DNA from: Candidatus Brocadiia bacterium
GTDB taxonomy: Bacteria; Planctomycetota; Brocadiia; SM23-32
Assembly (NCBI GenBank): GCA_046538485.1
Contig: JBKHIT010000061.1
Coordinates: 1-29,322, forward strand
Length of the DNA stretch: 29,322 bases
Direction of reading: 5' to 3'
Part shown: positions 2,442-28,328 of the stretch, piece after piece
Position numbering within the stretch: the stretch's first letter is position 1
How the letters are laid out: every line of letters starts with the position of its first letter
The notes under the pieces: model-generated
Databases searched by the model: none
What the model was told of the DNA's origin: nothing
What the model saw: the letters and a program-made list of their open reading frames with translations, nothing else
Program-made: the position numbers and the translations under genes

Positions 2442-3836
2442 TTACCAATCAGGATTCCGCTCCGGAATTTGCGCTTCAATCGAATCCCGCCAATCCTTCA
2501 ACATTCCATGCATTCTTTCCACGCGTTCGGGCTGAAGTTCGGCGATATTGTGCTCTTCGCTGATATCCTCGCGGAGGTTGTAAAGTTCGAGATGTCCGTC
2601 TTCGAAGAATTCGATCAGTTTGTAATCGCCTGAGCGGATGCTCGAGCCGGGTGTTCCTCCCTGGTTCCCGTAGTGTGGGTAATGCCAGAAGATGGCTTCC
2701 CGGTCGATCGATCTGGCACCTTTCAGCAAAGGCACAAGGCTGATGCCGTCGGTGTGCTGTTCGGGCAAGGGGCCAAGCCCGGCCATCTCGAGGAGGGTCG
2801 GGTAAAAATCGGGGCTTGTAACAGGTTCGCAGCAGACGGAACCGGGTTCGGTAACTCCAGGCCATTTGACGATGAGTGGTTCCCGGACTCCGCCTTCGTA
2901 CATCCAACCTTTACCTTCGGCCAGCGGGCTGTTGCAGGTGGGCGACCCTTCGGCGGTGGCCAGACCGCCATTGTCGGATGTGAAAACAACGACCGTGTTG
3001 TTTTCTTCGCCTTCGTCTTTTATAGCTTCCATAAGATGCCCGATGTTTTCGTCGAGACTTTGAATCATCGCGGCGTAATCGGGATCCGACTGGACGAGAC
3101 GCCGTTTGATCTGCCGGTCCTTTTTGCCTTCGATAGGGAACGGACCGTCAACCTCGAAGGTCTTGACAGTGTCGAGGCCCAATTCCTTGACCTTCTTTTC
3201 GTATCGTTCGACCAGTGCCTTTTTCGCCTGGATGGGACCATGGACGCAATAATAGCACATGTTGAGATAGAACGGTCGCTCGTCATTTTCTCTGATCAGG
3301 CGAATGGCCTCATCGGTAAGGTGGTCGGGCAGGTATTTGCCTTCTTCTGCGTTTTCCATCGTCGGGTTGTTCCAGGGGCTGAAATATCCGTTTGTGGGCA
3401 GACCCCACTCACAGCCGCCGATATTTTCTTCGAACCCGTGTTTGTCAGGATAATAATCCTCTTTGCCAAGATGCCATTTGCCGAGGTGCCACGTGGCATA
3501 TCCCGCTTCATTGAGAGTTGCAGCGAGGCTTTTCTCCCCGCTCGGAAGATGGTCGATGTAAGGCGCGTCAACCAGGACACCCCGTCGTGGATGGCAGAAA
3601 CCACCCCAATCGATCCAGTCTGTAACTCCTACTGTGGCCGGGTATTTTCCGCTGAGAATGCTGGCCCGGGTGGGCGAGCAAACGGGGCAGGCGGCGTAGC
3701 CATCGGTAAACTTCATCCCCTCTCCTGCGATTTGATCGATGTTCGGGGTCTCGTAGAAGGTGCTTCCGTAACATCCGATATCTTTCCATCCCATATCATC
3801 AATCAGGATGAAGACAAAATTTGGCGGTTTTGGCAT
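2442..3836 (-). CDS. sulfatase (Cys-type, formylglycine-dependent S1 family)
   Basis: Start MPKPPNFVFILIDDMG with RBS GGAAAGGA; CSPTRASILSG signature, GKWHLG, SDNGG motifs; no signal peptide. Confidence 0.93.
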   Translation of the reverse strand: MPKPPNFVFILIDDMGWKDIGCYGSTFYETPNIDQIAGEGMKFTDGYAACPVCSPTRASILSGKYPATVGVTDWIDWGGFCHPRRGVLVDAPYIDHLPSGEKSLAATLNEAGYATWHLGKWHLGKEDYYPDKHGFEENIGGCEWGLPTNGYFSPWNNPTMENAEEGKYLPDHLTDEAIRLIRENDERPFYLNMCYYCVHGPIQAKKALVERYEKKVKELGLDTVKTFEVDGPFPIEGKKDRQIKRRLVQSDPDYAAMIQSLDENIGHLMEAIKDEGEENNTVVVFTSDNGGLATAEGSPTCNSPLAEGKGWMYEGGVREPLIVKWPGVTEPGSVCCEPVTSPDFYPTLLEMAGLGPLPEQHTDGISLVPLLKGARSIDREAIFWHYPHYGNQGGTPGSSIRSGDYKLIEFFEDGHLELYNLREDISEEHNIAELQPERVERMHGMLKDWRDSIEAQIPERNPDW

Positions 3837-4045: not shown

Positions 4046-7000
4046 TCACTCCCCGGTGATTTCATGCAAGGCATCGGGGGCAACATCTTCGGGGAGTTTT
4101 TCGGTGACTGCGTGGATGTCCTGCAGGCACCGGACTTCCAGCTCGCCGGTCCGCAGAGCCTGCACGGCTTCGGCAGCAGCACGAGCGGCAGCGATAGTAG
4201 TGATCAACGGTAATTTGCGCTTGACGGCCTCTCCGCGGATGAAGATTTCATCGTGGCGCGGAACCGGGCCACTCGGCGTGTTGATCAAGAGGCCCACGTC
4301 ACGGCTTTTTATGAAATCGATGATATTCGGTCGGCCCTCGGAAAGTTTTGGTACTTGAGTAGTTTCTACGCCTGCGTTCTGTAGCGCTGCGGCGGTACCG
4401 GAGGTTGCGATCACCTCCAACCCCATCTCGGAGAACTGCCGTGCAACCGGCAAGACGGCTTCTTTGTCAGCGTCTTTGACGCTGATGAATACCTTTCCTT
4501 CGACCGGCAGAGTTTGGCCGGCTGCGATTTGGCTTTTGGCAAATGCACCTCCGAAAGTGTCGTCGACCCCCATACATTCGCCCGTGGATTTCATCTCGGG
4601 TCCGAGGACCGGATCGACTCCGGGGAACCGATCGAATGGCAGAACTGACTCTTTGACGGCGTAGAATTTCGGTTTTGGGTCTGCGGTTACGCCTTGTTCC
4701 TTGAGACTCACCCCGACCATGACTTTGGACGCTATCATTGCCATGGGGAGCCCGGTAGCTTTGGAGACAAAGGGAACGGTTCGGGATGCCCGGGGATTGA
4801 TCTCCAACACGTAGATCTCGTCATCTTTGACGGCATACTGAATGTTCATCAGCCCCACGACTTCGAGTTCCAACGCCAGTTTTCGGGTTTGTTCGCGAAT
4901 ACGCTCGATTATTTCCTCTTCGAGCGAGAACGGCGGTAGCACCATGGCGCTATCTCCGCTGTGCACGCCGGCCTGCTCGATATGTTCCATCACACCTGCA
5001 ACCACAACGTTTTCCCCGTCGCTGACGGCATCGACATCGACCTCGATTGCATCGTCCAGGAATTTGTCGATCAGGATGGGGCGGTCGGGCGCGGCCAGAA
5101 GAGCTTCGTTTACCATCCGTTCCAAATCTTCTTCTTTCCAGGCGATTACCATGGCACGCCCCCCCAGCACGTAGGAAGGGCGTATAAGGACCGGGTAGCC
5201 GAGTTCCCCGGCGATTTTATGGGCCTGTTTGTAGGACGTGGCTGTATCACTCGGAGCCTGCTGAAGGCCCAGTTTCTGGATGAGTTCGCGGAACAGTTTG
5301 CGGTCTTCCGCGCGGTCAATGGCCGCCGGACTCGTTCCGAAGATGTTCACACCGGCTTTGGCCAGCGGCACAGCGAGGTTCAACGGAGTCTGTCCGCCGA
5401 GTTGGACTACAATCCCTTCCGGTTCCTCGCGTTCGGCGATATTCAAAACATCCTCGTAGGTCAGAGGCTCGAAATATAAGCGATTCGAGATATCATAATC
5501 TGTCGAGACAGTTTCGGGGTTCGAATTGACCATTATGGTCTCATACCCAAGTTCCCGGAGGGCGAGTGAAGCATGCACACAGCAATAGTCAAATTCCAGC
5601 CCCTGCCCGATTCGGTTCGGCCCACCTCCCACGATAAGCGCTTTGGGTTTATCACTGGAGCGGCTTTCATCTTCGGTCCCATAGGACGAATAAAAGTACG
5701 GAGTATAGGCTTCGAATTCTGCGGCGCAGGTGTCCACGAGTTTGTAGACAGGAGTAATCCCGGCTTCTTTGCGTTTCTGTCGGATATCAACCGGTTCCGC
5801 CCCGATCAGCGACGCAATTTGGGCGTCGGAAAAACCCCTTCGTTTCGCGTGGGCGAGCTGGCGGTCGCTCAATTCTTCCTCGGATGCATGCGAGGCGAGC
5901 CGGCGTTCTTCGGTAACGATTTCTTCCACATTATGAATGAACCAGGGATCGATCCGGGTGAGTTCCGCGATTTCCTCGGGTGTCATGCCTTTTTTCAGTG
6001 CATATTTGATGTAGAACATGCGCATCGGATTCGGGCGTTTGAGGTTTTCGCGCACCGCTTCATGATCGATCTTGCGTTCTCCGATCGTATCAAGTCCACT
6101 CAGACCAATTTCGAGTCCACGTAGCCCTTTTTGAAGCGATTCTTTGAACGTGCGTCCGATGGCCATGGTTTCGCCGACGGATTTCATGGAGACCGTCAGA
6201 TCATCGTCGCAGCCCGGGAATTTTTCGAAGGTGAAACGCGGAATCTTCGTGACGCAATAATCGATCGTTGGTTCAAAACAGGCCGGCGTCTCCTGGGTGA
6301 TATCATTTGGGATTTCATCGAGACTGTAACCGCAGGCCAGTTTCGCGGCGAATTTTGCGATCGGGAAACCGGTGGCTTTGCTGGCGAGGGCGGAGGAGCG
6401 GGAGACTCTGGGGTTCATCTCGATGGCAACCATCCGCCCGTCTTCCGGGTTGACGGCGAACTGGATGTTGGATCCTCCCGTTTCCACGCCGACCCGCCTG
6501 ATGATATCGATCGCATCGTCCCGCATGCTCTGATACTGTTTGTCGGTGAGGGTCTGGGCGGGGGCAACAGTTATGGAATCGCCGGTGTGGATACCCATCG
6601 GGTCAATATTTTCAATGGAACAGATGATGACGACGTTATCGTTGTGGTCGCGCATCACCTCGAGTTCGTATTCTTTCCACCCGATGACCGATTCCTCGAC
6701 AAGTATTTCGTCGATGATGCTGAGTTCGAGCCCGAGGGTGGCGGCATCTTCAAATTCCTCGGCGTTGTAGGCTATCGAAGCGCCGGTTCCTCCAAGGGTG
6801 AAACTGGGGCGGATGAGCAGAGGGAACCCGAATTCTTCGGCGGCCTCGCGGGCTCCTTCGAGATTATGGGCGGGGCGACTTTCGGGAATCGCCACTCCAA
6901 TTTCCTGCAGCGCAGTCCGGAACAGCTCCCTGTCCTCCGCGCATTGAATGGCATCGTAGTTCGCCCCAATCATCTCGACACCGTATTCCTCGAGGTATCC

Positions 7001-7315
7001 GGCTTCTGAGGCCTGGACGGCGACATTCAGGGCGGTCTGACCGCCGAGGGTGGCCAGAAGCGCATCTGGCTCCTCCCGCTTGAGGACCTTTTGAAGAACC
7101 TCCGCCGTTATGGGTTCGAGATATGTGCGGTCCGCCATAACGGGATCGGTCATGATGGTGGCGGGGTTGGAATTGAGGAGAATGACTTCGTAGCCTTCCT
7201 CGCGAATAGCTTTACATGCCTGAGTACCGGAATAGTCGAACTCACAGGCTTGTCCGATGATGATCGGTCCAGATCCAAGAATCAAAATCTTTTCAATGTC
7301 GGTTCTTTTCGGCAT
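4046..7315 (-). CDS. carB: carbamoyl-phosphate synthase large subunit
   Basis: [30 protein letters not shown]; duplicated ATP-grasp halves ([30 protein letters not shown]); C-terminal MGS-like domain. Confidence 0.98.
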
Positions 7316-7321
7316 AGTTCC

Positions 7322-8080
7322 TCAAAGTCTGACGTGAACATTTCTTTGAGCGAGGTACGACTTGACCTCGCTGACACTGTATTCTCCGTAGTGGAATATC
7401 GATGCTGCGAGAGCGGCGTCGGCCTGACCTTCTGTGAGCACTTTGAAAATATGTTCTGGTCCCCCGGCGCCGCCGGAGGCGATCACAGGGATCTCAACGG
7501 CTTCTGAGATAGCGGCGTTGAGCTCGATATCATATCCCGTTGTTTGTCCATCTGAATCGATGGATGTCAACAAAATTTCGCCGGCTCCGTATTCTTCCAC
7601 GTGGCGCGCCCAATCGACCGCCTTGTGCTCAGTCGGGGTCCGGCCGGATTCAACATAGACCTCCCAGCCGCCGTCGTCGGAGCGTTGTGCATCGATTGCT
7701 ACAACAATGCACTGACAGCCGAAACTTCGGGAGGATTTTTCGATCAGTTCGGGGCTGCGCACGGCGGCCGTATTGATTGAAACTTTGTCGGCGCCGGCGC
7801 TCAGCAGCTGGTTGATGTGTTGTTCGCTGCTGATTCCACCACCGACCGTGAAGGGAATGGAAATACACTCTGCGATCCGGGTAACCAGCCCGCGAATCGT
7901 CTCGCGGGCCTGGAGGGTAGCCGTGATATCGAGAAAAACGAGTTCATCAGCGCCTTCTTTGCTGTAGGTCGCCGCGCACTCCACCGGATCACCTGCGTCA
8001 CGCAGCTGTCCGAACGAGATACCTTTCACAACCCGGCCGTTTTTGACGTCGAGACAGGGGATGATACGTTTGGCTAACAC
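7322..8080 (-). CDS. hisF: imidazole glycerol phosphate synthase cyclase subunit
   Basis: [61 protein letters not shown]. Confidence 0.97.
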
Positions 8081-8083
8081 AAA

Positions 8084-8695
8084 TCAGTCCTCTTCACAGA
8101 GGCAGCAAAAATTCGAAAGCATTTTCAGTCCGACGGCGCCGCTTTTTTCGGGGTGAAACTGGGTACCAAAAACATTGTCCCGGCTGGCCACCGAAGTGAA
8201 CGTCCGTCCGTAATCAGTAGACCCCACACTGACTTCTGATTCAGCCGGCAAAGTGTAGTAGGAATGCGCGAAATAGAAAAACTCGCCGGATTCAATATCC
8301 TCAAAAAGAGAGCAGGCGGCGGTCTGGTCGACCTGATTCCAGCCCATATGCGGGACTTTCAGTCCGCGCTCAAACCGCACAACCTGGCCCGGCAGCAGAT
8401 TCAGACCCCCATGGCGACCGTGTTCTTCGCTTTCGGAGAACAACAGTTGGTGCCCGAGGCAGATCCCGAGCAACGGCCGCCCGGAATCGGCGAACTGACA
8501 GACGACATCGTCGAGTCCCCTCTCCCGCAACTGGTCCATGGCGGGAGCAAAAGCGCCGACGCCGGGCAGTATCAAACCGTCTGCGCCCTGCAGCAGTGAA
8601 GGATTATCGGTCAACTCGGCATCCCGCTGCAATCGTCTCAGGGCAAAAAGCACACTGCGGATGTTCCCCACATCATAATCGACCACCGCGATCAT
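8084..8695 (-). CDS. hisH: imidazole glycerol phosphate synthase glutaminase subunit
   Basis: [27 protein letters not shown] (catalytic Cys), [14 protein letters not shown]. Confidence 0.96.
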
Positions 8696-10299
8696 CTCTC
8701 GCTGCTCCTTTCGCCTGCGGCCCGGACAAAATCCCGGAACAGAGGGTGGGGATTTGTTGGGTAAGACTTGAATTCAGGATGGAACTGGGTCGCCAAGAAC
8801 CAGGGATGGTCTTCCAATTCCAGAATTTCGACGAGATCCAGCTCGGGGTTTATTCCGCTGAAGACCATTCCGTTTTCTTTGAAGATTTGCCGGTAGTTGT
8901 TGTTGAATTCATAGCGATGTCTGTGCCGTTCTTGAACCTCTTCGGCCTGGTAAGCCTCACCGGCACATGTGCCGGGCTGGAGTGTACAGGGCTGTGCGCC
9001 AAGACGCATCGATGCGCCTTTTTGAGTGACCTCCTTCTGTTCTTCCAGCAGACATATGATTCTATGTTCTGTGTTTCCGTTAATTTCGGTGGTGTCGGCG
9101 CCTTCCAGTCCGCAGACGTTCCGTGCAAATTCAATGGCGGCGCATTGCAGGCCCAGACATAAGCCAAGAAAGGGGATATTGTTTTCCCGGGCGTATTTTA
9201 CCGCTTCAATTTTCCCTTCCACGCCGCGCGAGCCAAATCCGCCCGGCACCAGGATTCCGTCGGCGCCGCCGAGAGTGTCTTCGGGTCCGTTCTCCTGGAC
9301 GTCTTCGGAGAGAACTTTTCGGATATTTATTCTGGCTTCGTTGGCAGTACCGCCGTGTTTGAGGGCTTCATAAATCGATTTGTAGGCGTCCTGAAGCTCC
9401 CCATATTTGCCAACGACCGCCACCTCCACTTCCGATGTGGGGTTCAGCATCGTTTCGAGAATGTCCGGCCAGGGGCCCAGATCGAGTTCTTTGGCGGGCA
9501 GATCAAGTCTATCGATTATCAGTCGATCAAAACCTTCATCCAGAAATATGAATGGAACTTCGTAGATAGTCTGATCGACGTCCGGTTCCTCGATGACGGC
9601 TTTTTTCTCGACGTTACAAAAGAGGGAGATTTTGTCTTTTGCGGATGCGGTCAGCGGCTTTTCAGTCCGGCAGATGATGGCGTCCGGTTCGATCCCCAAT
9701 TCGCGAAGCTTTATGACCGAGTGTTGCGTTGGCTTGGTTTTAATCTCCTGCGCGGCCCGGATGTACGGTACAAGCGAAACATGGACATACATTGCGTTGT
9801 CACGGCCTTCATCAAGACGGATCTGGCGGATGGCTTCGAGAAAAGGCAGCCCTTCAATATCACCAACAGTTCCGCCGATTTCACTGATGACGACATCGAC
9901 TTCCGGTGAGACGAGGCGCCGCACGCAATCCTTGATCTCGTCTGTGACGTGGGGGATGAGCTGGATGGTCTGTCCAAGATAGTCGCCTTTTCTCTCTTTC
10001 GTCAGGACGGACCAATAAACCTGTCCGGACGTGAAATTGCAGTTCTTATGGGTGGGCTCGCCTGTGAACCGCTCGTAGTGGCCGAGATCGAGATCGGTTT
10101 CCTCACCGTCTTCGGTTACATAGACCTCTCCATGTTGGTAAGGATTCATCGTGCCCGGATCGACGTTCAGATATGGATCGAATTTTTGCAGTTTAATCCG
10201 GAGTCCCCAGGCTTTGAGAAGCATGCCGATCGAGGCGGCGGTAATCCCTTTCCCCAGCGAAGAGACGACACCGCCGGTGACGAAGATAAATTTTGTCAT
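8692..10299 (-). CDS. pyrG: CTP synthase
   Basis: [60 protein letters not shown]. Confidence 0.98.
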
Positions 10300-10332
10300 T
10301 TTTTGCGCTTTTAGTGACAGTAGTACGGGATT

Positions 10333-11448
10333 CTACGTTCGGTTGTCTTTCATCATATCTTTGAATTCCTGGAACAGGTGCTGTGCATCGTGCGGACCGG
10401 CCGAAGCTTCGGGGTGGTACTGAACACACATTATGGGCATGTCTTTGTGCCGCAGTCCTTCCAGTGTCTTATCATTGAGATTCTTGTGGGTCAGCTCGAT
10501 TTGATCCTGATCGAGTGAGTCAATATCGACGCAGAAACCGTGATTCTGACACGTAATATCGATTTTCCCCGTTGTAAGGTCTTTCACCGGGTGGTTGGCC
10601 CCGCGGTGACCGAATTTCAGTTTATAAGTTTTGCCCCCGAGGGCGAGACCGAGGAGCTGGTGGCCGAGACAGATGCCAAAAATCGGTTTTTCTCCGAGAA
10701 GCTTTTGGAGCTCTTCCACAACGTAGGGAATTCCCGCCGGATCTCCCGGCCCATTTGAAAGCATGATTCCATCCGGATCTATGGCCTGCACGTCTTCAGC
10801 TTTGGTGCTGGCAGGAACCAGTGTGATATGGCATCCGGCTTCGGCCAGGCAGCGAAGAATGTTGTATTTTGCACCGAAATCATACACCACAACCCGCGCA
10901 TCGGCGGAATCCGCACGGGGGCTGCCTTCCCACTCGTAGGGTTTATCGCAGGTGACCTCTTTCACAAGATCGCGACCGATGAGCCCCGGCGCCTGGCGTG
11001 CGCGTTCAACGAGATCGTCACGTTCGAACTCGCCTGCAGCCAGCGCCGCCCGCATGGCGCCGGCCTCGCGGATATGACGTGTCAGAGCCCGCGTATCTAC
11101 TTCGCTGAGGGCGACGATATCGTGATCTTTCAGGTAATCTCCGAGTTGCCCCTGGGACTCGTTATTGGAGGGGTAGGGACAGTATTCTCTGACGATAAAT
11201 CCTTCGGCCTTTGGAGCTGCGGATTCGATATCCTGGCCATTCACTCCATAGTTTCCGATCAGGGGGTAGGTCATTGTGACGATCTGGCCTTTGTAGGAGG
11301 GATCCGTCAGAATCTCCTGGTAGCCTGTCATGCTGGTATTGAAAACGACTTCACCGGTTTTTATCCCGGGTGCGCCGAAGGATTCCCCTTCCAGGAAGAA
11401 GCCGTCTTCCAGGGCGATAGCCCCGCGGGGCGGCATGTTTTGGCTCAT
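10333..11448 (-). CDS. carA: carbamoyl-phosphate synthase small (glutaminase) subunit
   Basis: GEVVFNTSMTGYQEILTDPSY, LSNGPGDP, FGICLGHQ, FGHRGANHPV, QYHPEA. Confidence 0.97.
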   Translation of the reverse strand: MSQNMPPRGAIALEDGFFLEGESFGAPGIKTGEVVFNTSMTGYQEILTDPSYKGQIVTMTYPLIGNYGVNGQDIESAAPKAEGFIVREYCPYPSNNESQGQLGDYLKDHDIVALSEVDTRALTRHIREAGAMRAALAAGEFERDDLVERARQAPGLIGRDLVKEVTCDKPYEWEGSPRADSADARVVVYDFGAKYNILRCLAEAGCHITLVPASTKAEDVQAIDPDGIMLSNGPGDPAGIPYVVEELQKLLGEKPIFGICLGHQLLGLALGGKTYKLKFGHRGANHPVKDLTTGKIDITCQNHGFCVDIDSLDQDQIELTHKNLNDKTLEGLRHKDMPIMCVQYHPEASAGPHDAQHLFQEFKDMMKDNRT

Positions 11449-11533
11449 GAGTGCCTCTCAAATTATGATTGTCACTTTTTTGTTGAACTTTTATGCGGAA
11501 GCAAACGGCCACGAGTCTGTTTCAACCGGGGCT

Positions 11534-12340
11534 TTACCAGTTTCGATAAATTTCGGGCAAAGTTCGTTTGTGTTGCGCTTTTTCGATCATAGATCGCACT
11601 TTTTTAACAGCGTCGGGATCAGCCTGTGGTTCACGGCCGGTCTGCAATGCATCAACGATTTCGTCGATCACGTCGTAACTGAGCCCGATTTCACTTTCGT
11701 CTGTTTGACCCGGCCAGAGCCCGGCGCTTGGCGGTTTATTGATTACAACTTCCGGAATGCTCAGTTCCCGGGCCAGTTCCCGGACTTCTGATTTAAGGAG
11801 TCCGCCGATCGGCAGAATATCGGCGCCGCCATCGCCGTATTTCGTGAAATATCCCAGAGCCAATTCGGTCCGGTTTCCTGTTCCGGCCACAAGGTTGTTG
11901 CGAACGTTGGCAAAGAAATAGAGGGACGTCATCCTCAATCGCGGTTTTATGTTGGCTCGCGCGAGACTCGAGTCTTCTTCCGGGAGCTGCTCGAGAAAAT
12001 CCTGGTAAATTTTATCGAGCGAGACCGTTTCGGTTTGAACCCCGAGACTATCGGCAACCAATTGCGCGTGTTCGGTGTCCTGGTGTTCGCTTTCACAGGG
12101 CATTATTATTCCCAGGCTTTCATGACCGACGGCGTTTTTCGCGAGACCCAGCACCACGGCCGAATCAACGCCACCGCTCAGGCCAACGACAATCCCTTCC
12201 GCACCGGCTTCGCGCGTTTTCTGTTCAAGCCAGTCCGCGATTTTTTTTGAGATGGCTGTAAAATCCCTTTTTGTCGGATTTCTGGAAATCAAGTTTATTT
12301 TTGAACCGCGCACTCCTTTTTTCAGGTTTTGAGAGCCCAT
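11534..12340 (-). CDS. nadE: NH3-dependent NAD+ synthetase (no fused glutaminase domain); start uncertain (12340 or 12355)
   Basis: GLSGGVDSA PP-loop, ANIKPRLRM, GTGNRTE..LGYFTKYGDGG, KPPSAGLWPGQTDE; ~270 aa. Confidence 0.93.
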   Translation of the reverse strand: MGSQNLKKGVRGSKINLISRNPTKRDFTAISKKIADWLEQKTREAGAEGIVVGLSGGVDSAVVLGLAKNAVGHESLGIIMPCESEHQDTEHAQLVADSLGVQTETVSLDKIYQDFLEQLPEEDSSLARANIKPRLRMTSLYFFANVRNNLVAGTGNRTELALGYFTKYGDGGADILPIGGLLKSEVRELARELSIPEVVINKPPSAGLWPGQTDESEIGLSYDVIDEIVDALQTGREPQADPDAVKKVRSMIEKAQHKRTLPEIYRNW

Positions 12341-12383
12341 TTCATTTCTCAGCATTAGAGTATAGCGGATTTCTGCCGGCTCG

Positions 12384-13904
12384 TCAGGTCTTCCGCTCCA
12401 GGGCCTCGCGTCGCATGTCGTTGTCGACTGATACGGGATAATTTCCCGTGAAGCACGCAAGGCAATATTCGCTTCTCTCTGCCTGTGCTGCTCCCAAAAG
12501 ACCTTCCACAGTTTGATATCCCAGTGAGTCGACGCTGAGGAAGTCCGCGATTTCACTGACCGAACGCCGGGCGGCAATGAGCTGTTCGGTATCGGGGAAG
12601 TCGATGCCGTAGTAACAGGGATGCCGAATCGGCGGGGCGCTGATTCTCATGTGCAGCTCGCGCGCACCCATCTCCCGCAGCATCGAAAGACGTCCGCGGC
12701 TCGTCGTCCCGCGCACGATTGAGTCGTCCACCACCACCAGCCGTTTCCCTTTAACGACATCTTTCACGACGTTAAGTTTGATTTCGACGTGGTCGCTACG
12801 ATTTTCTTCCGGCGGGATTATGAAAGTCCGGCCAATGTACCGGTTGGAAATAAAGCCGAAATCGAGGGGGATGCCGGACCGACGCGAATATCCTAATGCG
12901 GAAGAATCTCCGGAATGCGGGATGCTCATCACGAGGTCGGCTTCCACAGGATGGGTTTCGGCGAGTTTTTCCCCCAACCGGAGACGGACATTGTGGACCG
13001 TCCGGCCGAACACGCGGCTGTCGGGTCTGGCAAAATAAATATGCTCGAATATACACCGCGCCTGATTTTCCGGAGGGGAGGCGACAAACTGCCAGGAACG
13101 TAACCCGTCATCGTCAATGCATACGATCTCGCCCGGTTCGATATCACGAATATATTCCGCCCCGAGCAGATCAAACGCGCACGTTTCGCTGGCAACGACG
13201 TATCCGCTGCCGAGTTTGGCCAGAGAAAGCGGTCGGAATCCTTGGGGGTCGCGGGCCGCCATCAGACGCGAGGAAGTCATCATGGCAAGGGAATACGCGC
13301 CCCGGACGTGATGCAACGATTCGCCGAGTGGGTCGGCCACGCCGATGTGTTCGGGGTCGGCCAGCAGATGGACGATAATTTCGCTGTCGGTCGAGGTCTG
13401 GAATATGGAACCGCGCGATTCATACAGTTCCCGAAGCGACCGGGCATTGGCGAGGTTGCCGTTGTGAGCGACCGCCACGATCCCCTGGGAGTATTCAATC
13501 ACCAGAGGCTGGATGTTCTGGACCCTTTTGGCACCGGTTGTTGAGTAACGGGTGTGGCCGACGGCGATGTGGCCCGGGAGGTTCTGAAGGTCTTTGTGCC
13601 CTATTGCCTCCGTGAGAAGTCCCAGACCTTTGGCGCTCTGGATTTGCCGACCGTCGGAGGCGACAATGCCGGCCGATTCCTGCCCCCTGTGCTGAAGGGC
13701 GTGGAGACCGGCATGGGCTTTTCGAGCGGCGTTGCTGACCCCGTAGAGGCCAATGACCCCGCAATGGTGACGGAGCTCGGAGCCCCGGGCGTCAGAAGTT
13801 CCTACCGATCCGCTGTCTGCGGGTCGAGAGCTACAGAATGAACAAGAAGAACAGCGAACCATATTGGGCTTTGCTTCCGTTTCCAGAACCTGGGGATTAT
13901 TCAT
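12384..13904 (-). CDS. purF: amidophosphoribosyltransferase, [4Fe-4S] (B. subtilis-like) type with long propeptide
   Basis: Ntn start HHCGVIG, LQHRGQESAGI, GHTRYST, HNGN, PRT motif VVVDDSIVRGTT; Fe-S Cys in RCIFE, HPCYYG, YCLACF; AGGAG just upstream of the ATG. Confidence 0.96.
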   Translation of the reverse strand: MNNPQVLETEAKPNMVRCSSCSFCSSRPADSGSVGTSDARGSELRHHCGVIGLYGVSNAARKAHAGLHALQHRGQESAGIVASDGRQIQSAKGLGLLTEAIGHKDLQNLPGHIAVGHTRYSTTGAKRVQNIQPLVIEYSQGIVAVAHNGNLANARSLRELYESRGSIFQTSTDSEIIVHLLADPEHIGVADPLGESLHHVRGAYSLAMMTSSRLMAARDPQGFRPLSLAKLGSGYVVASETCAFDLLGAEYIRDIEPGEIVCIDDDGLRSWQFVASPPENQARCIFEHIYFARPDSRVFGRTVHNVRLRLGEKLAETHPVEADLVMSIPHSGDSSALGYSRRSGIPLDFGFISNRYIGRTFIIPPEENRSDHVEIKLNVVKDVVKGKRLVVVDDSIVRGTTSRGRLSMLREMGARELHMRISAPPIRHPCYYGIDFPDTEQLIAARRSVSEIADFLSVDSLGYQTVEGLLGAAQAERSEYCLACFTGNYPVSVDNDMRREALERKT

Positions 13905-14157
13905 ACTCCTGACAGCTCAGCACTTTCCGGTTGGGTTTCGTGAAACGGCATGCCCGGCGCTTTCCGCAGTTCCGACACAGACCGATCCCGGTATCTCCAT
14001 GGGATCTGGAAATGCCGTTGGCGGGAGTGCGACTTGTCGATCGGCCAGCGCGGGTTTCAAAAGGCTGGAATTCTTTGCACGTCAGCACCGCCGCGTGCCC
14101 ATTCCTGTGGAGACACTCCGGTGATTCGGTGCAACTTTTGCAGAGAAGGTATTGCAT
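13897..14157 (-). CDS. small Cys-rich hypothetical protein, two CxxC-x5-C-x11-C-x-E[FY] repeats
   Basis: 86 aa; purine-rich RBS AAAAAGGGG; overlaps the purF start; two identically spaced 4-Cys units. Confidence 0.8.
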   Translation of the reverse strand: MQYLLCKSCTESPECLHRNGHAAVLTCKEFQPFETRAGRSTSRTPANGISRSHGDTGIGLCRNCGKRRACRFTKPNRKVLSCQEYE

Positions 14158-14200
14158 AATTTTTCCCCTTTTTATGTGTAAAACCTGCGAATATATGCTT

Positions 14201-15799
14201 CTATCCGCGGATTATTTCCATGGCTTCCTCGCGGTAGGCATTCTGGATATAAGGCAGTCCCGTGATCTCGGCCGCTTCGTTTGTGAGGGCCGCCAGGTCT
14301 TTCCGACTGATGGCTTCAATGTTGAAGTTCCTCGAACCGGCCATCAACTGCTGGAGACCGACTTTCAGTTTGTCGACGAAGGTGTACATGGCAATGGCGC
14401 CAAGAGGCATTTCTTTGACCGTATCTTCCCCGAACTCATCGCAGAGATCTTCGTAGTCAAGGAATATTTGTTCCGGTCTATCTCCATGCTGTTTGATGGT
14501 TTTCGGCAAATCCTCGCCGTTCTCCAGCCAGTTTTCCAGGTTTTTCCCCACCATCCCCGGGATCATAATCGCGCGCCCCATACATACGGCTTTGAAGTAG
14601 GGCGCTCCGAGTGCCAGCACTTTGAAAATGTGGTCTTCGGTTGAGAGCCCACCGGCCATGGCAAGGTCCGGCACATACGCGTCCTGGTCGTCGAGTTCCC
14701 GGGCAAGTTCACAGGCCATGGATTGCAGGTAGATGGTTGGAATACCCCACTCGTTCATCATGCGCCAGGGGCTCATGCCGGTTCCACCGGGCGCACCATC
14801 AATCGTCACAAGATCGAGTTTGGCGTCGGATGCCCATTTGAGAGCCATAGCAAGTTCACGCATCGGGTATGCTCCCGTTTTCAGCGTGACGCGTTTGGCC
14901 CCCAGATTGCGCAGGCGTTCGACTTCAGCGTGGAATCCTTCTTCATCAACAAAACCAAGACGGGAGTGCCTTTCAAAGTGCTTAATTTCACCTTCTTTGT
15001 AGGCTTTTTGATGGGACGGAGACGAAGGATCGGGTGTTACCAGATATCCTCGATCCTGCAGCTGGAGGGCGCGATCCAGGTTGTCGATCTGAATCTCACC
15101 CCCGATGCATTTCGCGCCCTGACCCCACTTGAGTTCGATTGTTTCGACACCCAGTTCTTGAATAGCGTATTCGGCAACCCCCAGGCGCGTGTCTTCGACA
15201 TTCATCTGGACGATCAGGTCGCCATAGCCGTTGTGAAACTTCCTGTAAATCTCGACACGATGACGCATCTCGGGGGATTCGACCAGTTTGCCGTTTTCAT
15301 CGCGTTCCAGTTGCGGGTCGACGCCGCAGACGTTTTCTCCGCAGACGAGTGTGATGCCGCTGATAGCGGCGCCCACGGCGAAATGGTCCCAGTTTTTCGC
15401 GGCGACTTCGGTTGAACCCAGAGCCCCGGTAAAAACAGGGGCCTGCATCCGAACTTTGTCATTGCCCGCACCATACTCGGTTTCGGTATCAATATCGGGG
15501 AAAAGAGTGGTATTAGGTCCAGCCTCGGCTCCTTCAGGCAGTCCGCGGGCCCCCATAGCGTAACCCATGATGTTGAGATGCGAATAATCGACCGGATAAT
15601 CTTTTTCGGCTCCGGCCGTCATGCTCCCGAATGGCCCCGGATAAAGAAGCTCGCGACCTCGCATGGACGCCTGAAAGACGTCACAATTGCCGCGGCATCC
15701 GTCAACACATCGGGTGCAGATTCCCGATTGTGGCACGACATCCCGACTTCTATTTCGTGTACCCGTTGCTTCGTTTGAGTTAGGTTGCTGCAAATTCAT
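14201..15799 (-). CDS. stand-alone FMN-binding glutamate synthase family protein (GltB domain 2-like, archaeal/anaerobe type)
   Basis: IELKWGQGAKCIGGE, DLVTIDGAPGGTG, EWGIPT, AMAGG....IFKVLALGA; N-terminal CTRCVDGCRGNC; RBS GAGGAG. Confidence 0.9.
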   Translation of the reverse strand: MNLQQPNSNEATGTRNRSRDVVPQSGICTRCVDGCRGNCDVFQASMRGRELLYPGPFGSMTAGAEKDYPVDYSHLNIMGYAMGARGLPEGAEAGPNTTLFPDIDTETEYGAGNDKVRMQAPVFTGALGSTEVAAKNWDHFAVGAAISGITLVCGENVCGVDPQLERDENGKLVESPEMRHRVEIYRKFHNGYGDLIVQMNVEDTRLGVAEYAIQELGVETIELKWGQGAKCIGGEIQIDNLDRALQLQDRGYLVTPDPSSPSHQKAYKEGEIKHFERHSRLGFVDEEGFHAEVERLRNLGAKRVTLKTGAYPMRELAMALKWASDAKLDLVTIDGAPGGTGMSPWRMMNEWGIPTIYLQSMACELARELDDQDAYVPDLAMAGGLSTEDHIFKVLALGAPYFKAVCMGRAIMIPGMVGKNLENWLENGEDLPKTIKQHGDRPEQIFLDYEDLCDEFGEDTVKEMPLGAIAMYTFVDKLKVGLQQLMAGSRNFNIEAISRKDLAALTNEAAEITGLPYIQNAYREEAMEIIRG

Positions 15800-15906
15800 T
15801 CAAGCGCTCCTCTTAATCGATCAGAAAAAAGTGATTTTGTTCGCGTAACTCCGCTGCACAAATATTGATCAAAGTGGATATCCTAATTACCGCACAGTTA
15901 TAAATT

Positions 15907-15922
15907 TGCAAACCGTGTGCCG
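15907..15922 (-). promoter_or_regulatory. sigma54 (-24/-12) promoter of the glutamate synthase/amidotransferase operon
   Basis: Minus strand CGGCAC-ACGGT-TTGCA against consensus TGGCAC-N5-TTGC(A/T), ~110 nt upstream of ATG 15799. Confidence 0.85.
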
Positions 15923-16035: not shown

Positions 16036-16070
16036 TGCGCAAAATGTGTGCAGTGATCTGTAACTGTGCA
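16036..16070. promoter_or_regulatory. putative enhancer (UAS) pair for a sigma54 activator
   Basis: TGCGC-AAAATGT-GTGCA (16036-16052; NtrC-like TGCAC-N7-GTGCA) and TGATC-TGTAACT-GTGCA (16054-16070), 115-150 nt upstream of the -24 box. Confidence 0.55.
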
Positions 16071-16221: not shown

Positions 16222-16250
16222 TTGACACAGACGTTCCAGCGAGGTACTAT
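16222..16250 (+). promoter_or_regulatory. sigma70 promoter of glutamate dehydrogenase
   Basis: TTGACA-17 nt-TACTAT, 80 nt upstream of ATG 16331. Confidence 0.7.
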
Positions 16251-16330
16251 ATTTTGACTTTAGCCAAATAAAATGGGATCGGTGATGATTCAGGTGATTC
16301 CGAGCAAATCTGGCGATAGGAGTGTTGTTT

Positions 16331-17578
16331 ATGGTATTTAACCCTTTCAAAATGGCGCAGGATCAGTTGGCTGTTGCGGCGGAGAAACTGAATTTAGATG
16401 CGGCGGTTCACGAGTTTTTGCGGTGGCCGTTGAGAGAATTGTGGGTGACACTGCCGGTAAAAATGGATGATGGGTCGACGGAAATTTTTCGGGGTTTTCG
16501 TGTGCAGTACAACGATGCCCGAGGTCCTTGCAAGGGCGGCATCAGGTTCCATCCAGAAGAAACTATTGAAACAGTACGGGCTTTAGCCGCCTGGATGACC
16601 TGGAAGACAGCTGTCGTTGATATTCCCCTGGGCGGAGGCAAAGGTGGAGTGGTTTGCAATCCGAAAAAGATGAGCCGGAACGAACTTGAAAGATTAAGCC
16701 GCGCCTACATACGGCAGGTTGGCCGGATTGTGGGTGATCACAAAGACGTGCCGGCTCCGGATGTTTACACGGATCCGCAGATTATGGGCTGGATGATGGA
16801 CGAGTACGAAGCAATGAATGGGGGGCGTCATGAACCGGGCATGATTACGGGGAAACCGATCCCACTGGGGGGTTCATTAGGGCGTGGCGATGCGACGGCA
16901 CGGGGCGGCTGCTACATCGTCCGCGAAGCAGCGAAATCGCTCGGTATTGATACGAAGGGATCAACGGTTGCGATTCAGGGGTTCGGTAACGCCGGTCAGT
17001 ACGCTGCTCTGCTGGCGGATTCGATACTTGGCTGTAAGATTATCGCCGTCAGCGACAGCCGTGGTGGTATTATCAACGAAGATGGTTTTGATTCCGAAGC
17101 TCTTGTGAAGCATAAGCTCGACACCGGAGCCGTGGGAGATTTTCCGGAATCGGAACCAATCACAAACGAGGAACTTCTTGAGCTACCGGTTGATATACTG
17201 TTCCCCGCGGCGCTGGAAAATGTGATAACAAAGGACAACGCTCCTGAAATCAACGCCAAAATATCATGCGAATTGGCGAACGGCCCACAAACCCCGCAGG
17301 CCGACGAAATCCTTCATGAAAATTCAGTGCTGTTTATCCCCGATTTCCTGGCGAATGCAGGCGGAGTGACAGCCAGTTATTATGAGATGGTTCAGAATAT
17401 CACAAACCATTACTGGACGGCCGATGACGCGAATGCGGAACTCGATCAGAAGATGACAGCTGCTTTCCACACGGTCTATCAGGTCGCCCAAAACGAAAAC
17501 GTCCACATGCGCCTGGCTGCTTATATGGTTGCCGTGGAACGCGTAGCAGAGGCCGTCAAACTCCGCGGGTGGGTTTGA
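16331..17578 (+). CDS. gdhA: Glu/Leu/Phe/Val dehydrogenase, most likely glutamate dehydrogenase
   Basis: RGPCKGGIRFHP, MTWK, LGGGKGG, DVPAPD, ITGKP..LGGSLGR, QGFGNAG, PDFLANAGGV, LRGWV; RBS AGGAG at 16318-16322 favours ATG 16331. Confidence 0.93.
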   Translation: MVFNPFKMAQDQLAVAAEKLNLDAAVHEFLRWPLRELWVTLPVKMDDGSTEIFRGFRVQYNDARGPCKGGIRFHPEETIETVRALAAWMTWKTAVVDIPLGGGKGGVVCNPKKMSRNELERLSRAYIRQVGRIVGDHKDVPAPDVYTDPQIMGWMMDEYEAMNGGRHEPGMITGKPIPLGGSLGRGDATARGGCYIVREAAKSLGIDTKGSTVAIQGFGNAGQYAALLADSILGCKIIAVSDSRGGIINEDGFDSEALVKHKLDTGAVGDFPESEPITNEELLELPVDILFPAALENVITKDNAPEINAKISCELANGPQTPQADEILHENSVLFIPDFLANAGGVTASYYEMVQNITNHYWTADDANAELDQKMTAAFHTVYQVAQNENVHMRLAAYMVAVERVAEAVKLRGWV

Positions 17579-17585
17579 GTTAAAT

Positions 17586-19913
17586 TTAGTGCTGGGAAAT
17601 CCCTAAATCCTTGATTTTTCTGCGCACAGTATTGCGGCTGACCCCGAGTTCTTCCGCCGCCTTCGTCTGGGTAAAGTCTGTACTTTCAAGCACCTGCTGA
17701 ATCAGTGATCTTTCGACCCGAGACATGATTCTATCGTAAAGATTGTGTTTGGTGCCGGATTCTCGGAGGCTTTTCACCAACCGAGGAATGACGTCCTCGG
17801 GTTCACCAACAATATCCTTGCTGCGACGACCTTCCGGCAGCATGCGAATGTTGATGGGGAGTAGTTTCAGGGGGATTGTGCCGGTCTGGGTCAGGACAAC
17901 AGCTCTTTCGATACAGCTTTCCAGCTCTCGGACATTCCCGGGCCAGGAGTATTCCATGAATGTGTCCAGAACTTCGCGGGATATTTTGGAAACATCTTTG
18001 TCATACTGTTTGCTGTATTTCTCCAGAAAGTGATCGACAAGGAATGGAATGTCATCGGTACGCTCACGGAGCGGAGGGATAAAAATCGGGATGACGTTGA
18101 GGCGGTAAAATAGATCTTCCCGGAAAGTCCCTTTGCTCATGTGCTCTTCAAGATCGACATTTGTCGCGGCAACCACGCGTACATCCACGCTTATTGTTTT
18201 TGTTCCGCCGACTTTTTCGAATTCTTTTTCTTGAAGAACGCGCAGCAGTTTAACCTGTAGGCGTTCGCCTATGCTTCCGATCTCGTCCAGGAAAATCGTT
18301 CCTTCACCGGCGAGTTCAAAGCGCCCTTTGCGATTCTCGATGGCTCCGGTGAATGCTCCTTTCACGTGTCCAAACAGTTCACTTTCCAGCAGGTTCTCCG
18401 AAAGTGCGCCGCAGTTGACCTTGACGAAGGGGCCGTCTGATCGGTCGCTGTTGTAATGGAGCACGCTCGCGATCAGTTCCTTCCCCGTTCCCGTTTCTCC
18501 CTGGATGAGAACGTTGGCATCGCTTTTGGCGACGGTCGAGGCCGTGGCCACAACATCCTGCATGGTCCCGCTGGCGGCAACGATGTTGCCGAATTTGTAC
18601 TTCGATTCCAGATCTTTTCGCAGCCGTAGATTCTCAGCGACAAGCTCTTCCCGTTGCACCATCACCATCCGGTTAATTTTGATGGCCTGGCTGACCAGCG
18701 AGGCGATAATTTGCAGGAGGCGTTGGTCCTTGGCGAGAGTCTCTTCGTCCACAAATTCCCTGTCAACGCTGATCGCTCCAACAATTTCTTCGTCGACCCG
18801 AAGGGGAACGCAGACGAAGGAAACAGGACGACCTTCTTCCGTCCGACCGCGTGCACCTGTCCTGTTCAGAAAAAACGGGTCTTTGCTTATGTCCGCGATT
18901 GAAAGCGGTTGACCGGTTTCGACGACCCGGCCGGTGACGCCTTCTCCGATTTGATATTCTCCCCGTTCTTTTTCCGTAACACTCAGGCCATGGGCGGCTT
19001 CGATCTTGAGTCGACCCGATGACGGATCACGCAGCACAAGGGTTCCTCTCTTCAGTTTTAGTTCGCGTGCCAGGATATCCATCGTTTGCTCAAATACCCG
19101 TTCCAGCTCAAGTGCTCCGCCGATGGCATCCGACATCTCGCTCAGGACGGATAGCTCAAGTTCTTCTCGATGGGCGGGGGCAAACTCAAGTCCGTCTTCT
19201 GCGATGACGAAACGTTGTGGGATTCCAATACGTGGTGCTGCACGTCCCTCGCATTTTTTCAGTGCGACTGTGGCCTCTCCTTCTTCCACAGAGAGTTCCA
19301 GAACTACCTGAGTAATGTGCCGCAGGTTGGCCAGCAGCTGGCCCGAATGAGCTTCCCGTTCCAGAATCCAGTAGGCGACCGTGTTAAGATCGTAAAGGCG
19401 TGGACACATGTACGCGAAGAAATTGAGTGCCTGACGCTCTTCGTCCCATAATTCCAACATGCCCGTAATGCTATCAAAAACATAAAAAGGATTGTTGCCG
19501 GCCTCCCGCTCAAGTTCTTCCAGCGATTCAGAAACCTGGTCCGGATCGGGAGACGGGCAGCGTGCCACCGTTTTAACGGACGATTTCTGGGAATCCCCGC
19601 CGCCGTTGTAGAAATCGGAAAAAACTTTATCTCCCGATCCTTTGCCGCCCGTAAAGCAATCCAATAAAAGAAAATTGTCTTCCGGGAGCGTATCTCCATA
19701 CTTGGTCAGAATTGCGTTGGGAGACCTGTTAAAACTCACGTATATGACAGGTCTTTGGGATTGTTGAGAACTCCCAAAAAGGTTGCGGATAAAAACGCTT
19801 ATGGGAGCTCCGCTGTCGATTTCCCACACCACGTTATCGCCCGGCCGCAAAGAGCCGATCAGCCGGTCTATTTGCTCTATCCCGGTGCTCAAAAATGTGT
19901 CATGTCTACTCAT
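17586..19913 (-). CDS. sigma54-dependent activator: degenerate KaiC/RecA-like N-domain + GAF + AAA+ + Fis-type HTH (NifA-like C-terminal two thirds)
   Basis: [74 protein letters not shown]...FLNRT; N-terminus [22 protein letters not shown]...YVSF...VFDSITG. Confidence 0.92.
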
Positions 19914-21628: not shown

Positions 21629-23005
21629 ATGGCAAATACAGATCAAAAACCAAACGTAATTCTGATCAACTGTGACGATCTGGGCTACGGTGACCTCGGC
21701 TGTTACGGTTCCGGAGTCCATAATACACCCTTCCTGGATCAGATGGCCCGGGACGGCACCCGGCTGACAGATTTCTATATGGCCGCGCCGGTCTGCTCGC
21801 CCTCCCGCGGGGCGATGATGACCGGTTGCTACCCCCGACGCGTCGGATTCGGCACCTTCGATAACGGAGCCGCGGTCCTTTTCCCGGGACACGGCACGGG
21901 CCTTCACCCGGATGAAACGACGATCGGAGACCTGCTGAAAGAACAGGGCTACGCCACAAAAATCGTCGGGAAATGGCATTGTGGTGACCAGCCCCAGCAT
22001 CTGCCCACCAAACACGGGTTCGATAGCTATTATGGCCTGCCTTACAGCAACGACATGGGCCGGCAGGCCGGAGGGCGCGAGGAAGGGCCACCTCTGCCGC
22101 TTCTGCGCGATGATGAAGTCATCGAACTGCAACCCGACCAGTCGGGCATTACCGAGCGGTACGTCGAGGAATGCGTCCGGTTCATCCGTGACAACAAAAA
22201 CAACCCGTTTTTCCTGTACTTCGCTCACATGCATGTCCACCTGCCGCTCTACGCGCCGGAGCGATTCCTCGATAGCTCGGAGAACGGCCGTTACGGGGCC
22301 ACCGTCGAATGCATCGACTGGAGCGTGGGCGCCCTGATGCATGAAATCCAACGTCTCGGACTCGAAGAAGATACACTCATGATCTTCACATCCGATAACG
22401 GGTCCCGGGTGGCGGAGGGAGGATCCAACGATCCTCTGCGCGGACGGAAAGGGCAAACCTGGGACGGGGGAATGCGCGTCCCGTGTATCGCGCGATGGCC
22501 CGGCGTCATCCCGGAAGGTCAGGTCTGCAGCGAACTGGCCACCGCCATGGATATGTTGCCGACCTTCGCGGGTCTGGCCGGCACCGAACCGCCCGATGAT
22601 CGTATCATCGATGGACATGACATCTTCCCGCTTTTCCTGGGTGGACAGGAGGCATCCAGTCCATATGATGTCTTCTATTATTACTGGAAAGACGACCTGG
22701 AAGCCGTCCGCAACGACCGCTGGAAACTGCATATATCGCGGCGCCGGGATGAGGTCGTGGAACTCTATGATCTACGCGAAGATATCGGTGAGACGACAAA
22801 CGTGGCCGAAGATAACCCGGAGATCGTGCGTAAGCTGATGGACGAAGTTGAGAACGCCCGGGAGGACCTGGGAGATGCCGTGGTGGATGAGGAGGGGGCG
22901 AACTGCCGTCCCGCCGCTTTCGTGGAAGATGCCGAAGTGCTGGCCGAATACGATCCGGACCATCCCTACATCATCGCGATGTACGACCTGCCCCAGATTG
23001 GGTGA
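21629..23005 (+). CDS. sulfatase (Cys-type arylsulfatase-like, S1 family)
   Basis: KPNVILINCDDLG, CSPSRGAMMTG, GKWHCG, PYSNDM, SDNG; RBS AGAAAGG; no signal peptide. Confidence 0.93.
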   Translation: MANTDQKPNVILINCDDLGYGDLGCYGSGVHNTPFLDQMARDGTRLTDFYMAAPVCSPSRGAMMTGCYPRRVGFGTFDNGAAVLFPGHGTGLHPDETTIGDLLKEQGYATKIVGKWHCGDQPQHLPTKHGFDSYYGLPYSNDMGRQAGGREEGPPLPLLRDDEVIELQPDQSGITERYVEECVRFIRDNKNNPFFLYFAHMHVHLPLYAPERFLDSSENGRYGATVECIDWSVGALMHEIQRLGLEEDTLMIFTSDNGSRVAEGGSNDPLRGRKGQTWDGGMRVPCIARWPGVIPEGQVCSELATAMDMLPTFAGLAGTEPPDDRIIDGHDIFPLFLGGQEASSPYDVFYYYWKDDLEAVRNDRWKLHISRRRDEVVELYDLREDIGETTNVAEDNPEIVRKLMDEVENAREDLGDAVVDEEGANCRPAAFVEDAEVLAEYDPDHPYIIAMYDLPQIG

Positions 23006-23128
23006 GGGTGGGCGAAGGGACTTAAGGGCCGGAAGTGACTTCAATTCCGTGGACGTGCCGTTTTTCGTCGGCTCTGGAACGGCATATGTTGCGTGCCGGA
23101 CAATCGCCTCAGCACCGGTTCGTGGATG

Positions 23129-23960: not shown

Positions 23961-24031
23961 GTGTGCGGGATCAAGGAATGCGACAGGGAAAACCGAGTTC
24001 CTTGCGTCCCATCCCCGCCCAGAGCGGCTAT

Positions 24032-28081: not shown

Positions 28082-28177
28082 CGAGGAAACCTTTCTGCAG
28101 GAGATTGTTGTTAGCCCCCGATCCTAACGGCAACACAGAAATCTTAAGTAGGATTCAGCATGCAGCTTTAGAAGGTG

Positions 28178-28206
28178 TTTATACGAGGAGGAGCGCAATC
28201 TGTCAA
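28178..28206 (-). promoter_or_regulatory. sigma70 promoter of the large secreted protein gene
   Basis: Minus strand TTGACA-17 nt-TATAAA, ~100 nt upstream of ATG 28081. Confidence 0.65.
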
Positions 28207-28328
28207 CGTGGTGAGGGATTTGCACCGTCGGTCCTTCAGGGGTTCAGCGGCTATAGATTCTCTCCAAGCTGCCGTCCGTTCCTGATTCCTATCGGCGACC
28301 GCTTAAGCGAACGGATGCGGCCGACCGA

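Follow-up and report, generated by a model that had tools for sequence, protein, structure and literature searches.

Closest described systems

In Bacteroides thetaiotaomicron, enzymes of different pathways that take nitrogen from glutamine or glutamate are clustered with nitrogen-assimilation genes at a locus called high-affinity ammonium (HAA). According to Liu et al. 2021 (PMC8121099), carAB and dapLF of this locus are needed without ammonium, while the orphan CarB2 and Ddh are needed with ammonium, and the co-fitness of purF BT0555 with carB is 0.91. Here we describe an operon of this kind in a stretch of 29,322 nucleotides (the window) from the planctomycete Candidatus Brocadiia bacterium, which is contig C2 of a host genome of 5.19 Mb that is 88% complete. 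Nine genes run on its minus strand, from 15799 to 4046, in the order gltB-like, Cys protein, purF, nadE, carA, pyrG, hisH, hisF and carB. This operon is probably the glutamine-donor arm of a nitrogen-status switch, in which a glutamine route would serve at low ammonium and a direct ammonia route in excess. Throughout, C-numbers designate host contigs, L-numbers loci and G-numbers the genomes of relatives, G000 being the host genome.

The likeness to the HAA locus lies in the clustering of cross-pathway glutamine-donor enzymes and in the presence of glutaminase-less, ammonia-using alternatives elsewhere; in addition, dapF, part of DapLF in Bacteroides, joins the cluster in 6 relatives of the host. 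The differences are the phylum, the members hisHF, pyrG, nadE and (in kin) guaA with no asnB or glmS, an ammonia-type carbamoyl-phosphate synthase (CPS) that keeps a dead CarA rather than none, the additional synthetase-only GMP synthase, lone HisF and PurF with an initial Ser, and the sigma54 promoter with its KaiC-like/GAF predicted activator; Ddh was not found in the 88%-complete host genome. A preliminary description, made from the sequence alone, had read the grouping as one by chemistry rather than by pathway, an idea for which the Bacteroides locus is a precedent. The principle is already known from that genus, but the gene set, the dead CarA, the regulator and the lineage are different.

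The sigma54 regulons of NtrC and NifA in Proteobacteria also resemble this system, since they combine a sigma54 promoter, a palindromic enhancer about 100 bp upstream and the targets glnA and amtB-glnK. However, the activator predicted here lacks a receiver domain, possesses a KaiC-fold N-domain and a GAF domain, and scores below the NifA cut-off, and its putative targets include biosynthetic amidotransferases. A third parallel is the mitochondrial ammonia-dependent CPS I, whose glutaminase part is retained and catalytically dead (PMC8121099). In contrast to CPS I, two separate genes are involved here, Cys is replaced by Gly, His is lost, and a live CarAB is present in the same cell. Nothing on this operon, the activator, a Ser-start PurF or the dead CarA was found in the open literature, the search not extending to subscription papers or the Iakiviak 2017 dissertation.

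Gene content and catalytic residues

The genes of the operon are as follows.

14201..15799, minus strand: gltB-like gene, 532 amino acids, stand-alone glutamate-synthase-like FMN barrel (Pfam PF01645)
13897..14157, minus strand: Cys protein, 86 amino acids, two Cys-x2-Cys-x4-5-Cys-x10-11-Cys repeats (open reading frame)
12384..13904, minus strand: purF of the glutamine type, a propeptide preceding the catalytic Cys at 13763 (TIGR01134)
11534..12340, minus strand: nadE, ammonia-only type, start uncertain (12355-12292) (Pfam, NCBIfam)
10333..11448, minus strand: carA, glutaminase triad intact (NCBIfam, residues)
8692..10299, minus strand: pyrG, CTP synthase (NCBIfam)
8084..8695, minus strand: hisH, glutaminase (NCBIfam)
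7322..8080, minus strand: hisF (NCBIfam)
4046..7315, minus strand: carB (NCBIfam)

All nine open reading frames were confirmed as co-oriented and close-packed, with junctions between -8 and about 90 nt (in order 43, -8, 28-91 depending on the nadE start, 85, 33, -4, 3 and 6 nt). The products of carB, hisF, hisH, pyrG, carA, nadE and purF exceed their NCBIfam cut-offs (purF: 504 bits against TIGR01134, cut-off 350), and the sole match of the first gene in the window protein scan is Pfam Glu_synthase. The scan of 17 window proteins revealed no other pur, pyr, arg, his or nad gene, as the preliminary description had stated, and an Rfam scan of the window gave no match.

That description had also claimed that every enzyme of the operon consumes glutamine or ammonia and that the catalytic residues are intact. 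The residues bear this out: the Cys-His-Glu triad is kept in CarA, HisH and PyrG (G-x-C-L-G and H-P-E motifs), and the N-terminal Cys of PurF is kept, after a propeptide of 33-47 residues. The claim needs qualification for the gltB-like protein, which has no glutaminase domain, and for NadE, which is of the ammonia-only type. NadE consists of the NAD_synthase domain without the nitrilase/glutaminase domain (Pfam) and scores 134.7 against the profile of the glutamine-type NAD synthetase, below the cut-off of 479; none of the four nitrilase-family genes of the host genome adjoins nadE. The operon comprises the glutamine-using enzyme set plus the sole nadE, pyrG and hisH found in the genome.

The PurF propeptide (window 13763-13904) is unusually long and contains C-S-S-C-S-F-C; in close kin it is shorter and lacks this motif.

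A second, glutaminase-dead enzyme set

The window had been suspected of carrying a second isoenzyme set, and a search for paralogues had been proposed. Two sets do exist, but the window holds the glutamine-using one, and the second, glutaminase-dead set lies elsewhere; purF, carA, carB and hisF are duplicated in the 88%-complete genome, while nadE, pyrG and hisH are single. On C60, a synthetase-only GMP synthase (GMP-synthase-B), a dead carA and carB2 stand in this order. In the dead CarA, Gly stands in place of the nucleophile and His-Pro-Glu is gone, and carB2 is 58% identical to the operon carB. The dead purF, on C57, begins Met-Ser-Gly (Ser at position 1), and the second hisF (hisF2), on C90, has no hisH neighbour.

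The set is widespread in the 30 relatives of the family that were surveyed, which are 64-96% complete and are kin rather than independent trials. The dead carA occurs in 22/30, kept in frame at 46-59% identity, and 19/30 possess both carA types. As in CPS I, the glutaminase nucleophile of the dead CarA-CarB2 pair is gone: none of the 23 dead-carA loci with the site in view (L139-L161, including the host genome and G032) retains either Cys or His. In a quick IQ-TREE search on 50 rows, from which fragments with fewer than 280 aligned residues had been removed, the dead carA formed one clade apart from live carA (SH-aLRT 100). The dead purF is present in 20/30 relatives, starting with M-S-G in all of them, and 18/30 have both purF types. 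The synthetase-only GMP synthase was found in 21/30 and two hisF genes in 19/30; hisH is never duplicated (25 relatives have one), and pyrG is single throughout, split contigs aside. Families f5 and f8 (21 genomes) contain carA, purF, hisF and GMP synthase in single copy only.

A further PurF subtype, with an M-x-x-N-C-G start (L195-L197, L288), keeps the Cys, yet is closer to the dead PurF than to the operon PurF.

Glutaminase-dead amidotransferases generally keep ammonia-dependent activity, and the residues lost in the second set suggest that its enzymes would use free ammonia. Loss of glutamine synthetase as the reason for such a set was rejected, since two glutamine synthetase genes are present in the genome. 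For CarB and mitochondrial CPS, ammonia-dependent activity without glutaminase is stated in PMC8121099.

It could also be argued that the dead paralogues borrow a glutaminase in trans (CarA, HisH or a TrpG-like protein) or are regulatory pseudo-enzymes, the operon being simply the main set. HisH could pair with either HisF, and other class I glutaminases are present in the genome. This explanation is nevertheless improbable: an N-terminal nucleophile cannot be borrowed by the dead PurF, CarB2 has its own dead small subunit maintained in frame in the relatives, and in B. thetaiotaomicron the orphan CarB2 is required solely when ammonium is present and shows no glutaminase among its co-fit genes (PMC8121099).

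Conservation of the cluster

Loci were examined in 26 of the 30 family genomes. The view that the genes are grouped by chemistry is borne out in 21 of these 26, where glutamine-type amidotransferases of at least two pathways occur in one co-oriented run, and chance adjacency of the operon genes was rejected on this basis; the five remaining genomes mostly have short contigs. The order is shuffled and guaA, glnA, glutamate synthase (GOGAT) or dapF can be additional members. For instance, the order is glnA-GOGAT-purF-nadE-carA-guaA-pyrG-carB in G004, activator-gdh-purF-glnA-carA-guaA-hisH-hisF-carB in G006, and gdh-dapF-purF-activator-gltB-like-carA-guaA-carB in G016 and G018. In family f6 (G035, G038), purF-carA-pyrG-guaA-carB lies near PII and gdh genes. 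The genes for glutamine synthetase, GOGAT and Amt are separate from the operon in the host, but share its motifs, and are co-located in G004, G009, G029 and others; glnA or GOGAT is found inside or beside the cluster in G003, G004, G006, G009, G010, G028, G029 and G030.

A neighbourhood search with the gltB-like gene, as the preliminary description had proposed, showed that clusters recur in the family and in distant phyla. However, only 8 of 80 distant gltB-like loci have such enzymes in reach (L048, L079, L085, L086, L095, L105, L090, L091), plus scattered nadE matches, so a gltB-like gene does not generally signal the presence of the cluster. In L090 and L091, a dead purF and carB lie near the gltB-like gene. 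Two Aerophobetes-titled genomes combine clusters of the glutamine type with a second carB that adjoins a lone hisF (one begins at a contig end). In a Desulfobacteraceae genome, one site carries GOGAT-carA-carB-purF (Cys) and another gdh-dead purF-carB2. Among the five distant genomes tested, two have the glutamine set only and none has a dead carA.

Promoters and the predicted shared regulon

The regulatory sites of the region, and the gene divergent from the operon, are the following.

15907..15922, minus strand: sigma54 -24/-12 promoter, CGGCAC-N5-TTGCA (motif; family conservation)
16036..16070, unstranded: tandem 17-bp palindromes, TGCRCA-N5-TGYGCA, two copies 1 bp apart, predicted enhancer (motif matrix)
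15855..15871, unstranded: single third palindrome in the 5' leader (13.7 bits)
12359..12387, minus strand: internal sigma70-like promoter, CTGACG-17-TATACT, at the end of purF, ahead of nadE-carA-pyrG-hisH-hisF-carB (motif)
16222..16250, plus strand: sigma70-like promoter of the divergent gdhA, TTGACA-17-TACTAT (consensus match only)
16322..17578, plus strand: gdhA, glutamate dehydrogenase, divergent from the operon (Pfam, NCBIfam)

The sigma54 motif of the operon is by itself not above chance (20 matches against 25 expected at 2 mismatches), but 16 of 18 family loci keep the promoter named in the preliminary description ahead of their gltB-like gene. The same site is found in 0 of 76 other loci and in 0 of 4 other class members. 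The predicted enhancer sits 113 bp upstream of the -24 box; tandem palindromes are present in 13 of the 16 family loci, 75-114 bp upstream, and the third palindrome of the window is a possible feedback site. A matrix trained without the window gives the window pair the highest score of all tandem sites in 5.18 Mb (31.5 bits, the next being 15.4). The genome contains rpoN, and the operon would be co-transcribed from the sigma54 site.

In a combined scan of sigma54 and enhancer, with 407 sigma54-like sites, the operon ranked 1st, glnA-GOGAT 2nd and amtB-glnK (C80) 8th. At the second site (C87:4534-11475, L136), behind glnA come the five genes of a split (archaeal-type) glutamate synthase; a sigma54 site is present, with a palindrome 117 bp upstream. 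A sigma54 site precedes glnA in 13 of 24 loci of the relatives, and the best palindrome falls at 116-118 bp in 8 of those; loci with fewer than 300 bases upstream were dropped from these counts (one each for glnA, amt, short GMP synthase and dead purF). The genes glnA-GOGAT and amtB-glnK are nitrogen-limitation genes, and the nitrogen-linked control that had been proposed gains from the motifs that the operon shares with them. None of the dead-set genes of the host has a sigma54 plus enhancer site in the genome scan, and in the relatives no sigma54 site lies ahead of the short GMP synthase (0/16) or the dead purF (0/20).

A second glutamine synthetase gene (C101:7942-9351) and a second gene of the glutamate dehydrogenase (GDH) family (C67:175234-176436) have neither sigma54 site nor palindrome.

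Internal promoters and terminators had been named as signs against a single unit. The former are partly present, in that the hexamers and spacing of the sigma70-like site before nadE recur in G005 and G023 (one genus), with sigma70-like sites overall at chance level (12 against 10); on the minus strand, the purF/nadE junction showed no terminator-like site. One could also suppose a housekeeping cluster that is expressed largely constitutively: transcription from the sigma54 promoter would be limited to the gltB-like gene, the Cys protein and purF, the internal sigma70 promoter would serve the remaining genes, and the duplicates would be split by end product (e.g., arginine versus pyrimidine) rather than by nitrogen supply. 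The internal promoter conserved in three genomes, the single copies of the essential nadE and pyrG, and the placement of purF ahead of the sigma54 promoter in several kin favour it. We consider it unlikely, though still the least improbable of the alternatives: the duplicates differ specifically by glutaminase loss in four unrelated enzymes, carA-guaA-carB come after the sigma54 promoter and the gltB-like gene in many kin, no sigma54 site was found upstream of carA, and the purF/nadE junction lacks a terminator-like site.

The predicted activator

17586..19913, minus strand: predicted activator, 775 amino acids, with KaiC/RecA-fold N-domain, GAF, sigma54 AAA+ (GAFTGA) and Fis-type helix-turn-helix (Pfam)

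The closest folds to the N-domain are Sso2452, PH0284 and KaiC (E 7e-13), and its P-loop is degenerate. Of the 9 sigma54 activators of the genome, this one alone contains an S-R-N-T-[VL]-R helix, which 17 orthologues retain with S or T as its first residue. In several kin, the activator's own gene has single palindromes immediately upstream. We infer from these features that this protein binds the tandem palindromes. The palindrome resembles the NtrC box; a search with the helix-turn-helix matched only Fis and designed repeats. Identity with NifA and NifA/nif control were rejected (TIGR01817 501.7, cut-off 528.85; no TGT-N10-ACA in the intergenic region), as was identity with NtrC, the N-terminal receiver domain being replaced by the KaiC-like and GAF domains.

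In other phyla, the KaiC-like N-domain is fused to XRE-cupin regulators or to PPDK-like proteins beside the gltB-like gene. KaiC-like regulators with an XRE helix-turn-helix and a cupin domain directly adjoin this gene in Nitrospirota and Desulfobacterota (L098:8409-9671, L045:11751-13097 and about 18 more loci). Genes for NrpR (17 loci), PII, Amt and ANTAR proteins are also near it in other phyla, and ANTAR regulators are generally tied to nitrogen genes, according to PMC3369931.

The gltB-like protein and the Cys protein

An alignment of 89 sequences shows a conserved FMN barrel in the gltB-like protein, and its structure model (pLDDT 86) has Synechocystis GltS 1OFD as closest fold (E 9e-10, TMq 0.47). 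It shares the barrel and the QGAK and GGTG motifs with the GltB FMN domain (PDB 1OFD, 1EA0) and with the split archaeal-type GOGAT; the motifs align to GltB, the similarity being weak (hhalign probability 94.6). However, it lacks the amidotransferase (glutaminase), central and GXGXG domains and the C-terminal 3Fe-4S motif of GltB, has its own N-terminal cluster of four Cys (CxxCxxxCxxxC), invariant in the alignment, and a complete split GOGAT is present separately on C87. Sequence searches of the PDB with this protein or with the activator N-domain returned nothing, or only designed TIM barrels. Genes like NuoE, NuoF and NuoG or ferredoxin-like genes adjoin the gltB-like gene in 8-9 distant loci. 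On balance, we lean slightly towards a glutamate/2-oxoglutarate redox enzyme with FMN and 4Fe-4S, using free ammonia or a partner in trans; it may otherwise act as a sensor or in GDH control.

The gltB-like gene lies beside a gene for a PPDK_N (ATP-grasp) protein, usually followed by gdh, in L033-L035, L038, L054, L055, L090, L091, L095 and L100. Some of these neighbours have a receiver-like domain, related proteins carry the KaiC-like N-domain, and the PPDK_N protein is a possible GDH regulator. Two divergent gltB-like paralogues occur in tandem or close together in L071, L074, L075, L082 and L102.

The Cys protein, probably metal-binding, has no Pfam or NCBIfam match; homologues with one or two repeats are found near the gltB-like gene or purF in loci of 9 family genomes.

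The control could have the opposite polarity, the activator sensing abundance of glutamate or glutamine (amino-acid feeding), so that the gltB-like flavoprotein would deaminate glutamate and pass ammonia to NadE and the synthetase domains. An ammonia-only NadE, a gltB-like protein without glutaminase and often beside gdh, and the sigma54 control of gdh in G006 agree with this. Nevertheless, the same promoter architecture stands ahead of the limitation genes glnA-GOGAT and amtB-glnK, and the NrpR, PII, Amt and ANTAR genes adjoin the gltB-like gene elsewhere, and we hold this to be the most improbable of the explanations.

A probable nitrogen-donor switch

Since glutamine enzymes are grouped and glutaminase-dead copies exist elsewhere, the most likely reading is that the cell exchanges one enzyme set for the other with the ammonium supply. 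Under ammonium scarcity, the KaiC-like/GAF/AAA+ activator would bind the tandem palindromes and drive sigma54 transcription of the operon, of glnA-GOGAT (C87) and of amtB-glnK (C80), and the ammonia fixed into glutamine would be used by PurF, CarAB, HisHF and PyrG (and GuaA in kin). When ammonium is plentiful, the dead CarA-CarB2, the synthetase-only GMP synthase, the dead PurF and the lone HisF2, free of sigma54 sites, would use free ammonia, with GDH alongside, and spare the ATP of glutamine synthetase. The weak internal sigma70 promoter may give basal, constant expression of the single-copy nadE and pyrG and of the genes behind them. Enteric nadE/nit mutants fail on poor nitrogen, and higher levels of an ammonia-only NadE during limitation would act as compensation. 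The gltB-like protein would contribute as a glutamate/2-oxoglutarate redox enzyme that needs no glutaminase.

Several observations weigh against such a switch. Only 6 of 24 glnA loci of the relatives pass the stricter enhancer threshold (9 bits), and only 4 of 15 amt loci have a sigma54 site. The host guaA lies outside the operon and has no sigma54 site; none is found where gdh-dapF precedes a Cys-type purF (0/4; G011, G016, G018, G027), gdh itself is under sigma54 in G006, and in G004 and G030 a second glnA without a sigma54 site leads the dead set. The dead purF may lie inside an operon, so that a missing promoter just upstream of it is weak evidence. Neither pyrG nor nadE has a second copy, and the operon NadE is itself of the ammonia-only type. 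In some Desulfobacterota, the gltB-like gene sits with gdh and the dead purF or carB2, and hence does not mark one side only.

A still wider picture would be a cell-wide switch, in which one new KaiC-fold/GAF activator turns on glutamine synthetase, GOGAT, Amt and every glutamine-type amidotransferase. In parallel, free ammonia would feed purine, pyrimidine/arginine, GMP and histidine synthesis through a vertically inherited dead set, one member of which is a bacterial CarA resembling the pseudo-glutaminase of CPS I. Its recurrence on XRE-cupin regulators and PPDK-like proteins next to these genes would mark the KaiC-fold domain as a new nitrogen sensor, and the gltB-like protein would form glutamate independently of glutamine, driven by Fe-S. 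That all these parts hold together is a tentative proposal, with somewhat less than an even chance.

Other features of the window

A hybrid PAS histidine kinase and an upstream membrane open reading frame overlap by 4 nt and are possibly one split sensor. The window also encodes two sulfatases and a secreted-looking protein of 1349 residues without Pfam match. All these, which together take up 109-2423, 2442-3836, 21629-23005 and 24032-28081, are unrelated to the operon. The stretches 23000-24100 and 28100-29322 are GC-rich and non-coding, and ORF-like text repeated at about 23500-23900 and 28400-28900 suggests a dispersed repeat or mobile remnant.

Significance

Four amidotransferases occur as matched glutamine/glutaminase-dead pairs across the whole family, together with a predicted regulator, operator and regulon, so that ammonia-dependent bacterial CPS, PurF, GMP synthase and HisF become directly testable by expression in Escherichia coli. 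Many "duplicate" purF, carA, guaA and hisF genes would be ammonia isoforms, which would correct their annotation, and the KaiC-fold domain is a candidate new nitrogen-sensing domain. The pairs suggest that anaerobes short of ATP circumvent glutamine synthetase at high ammonium.

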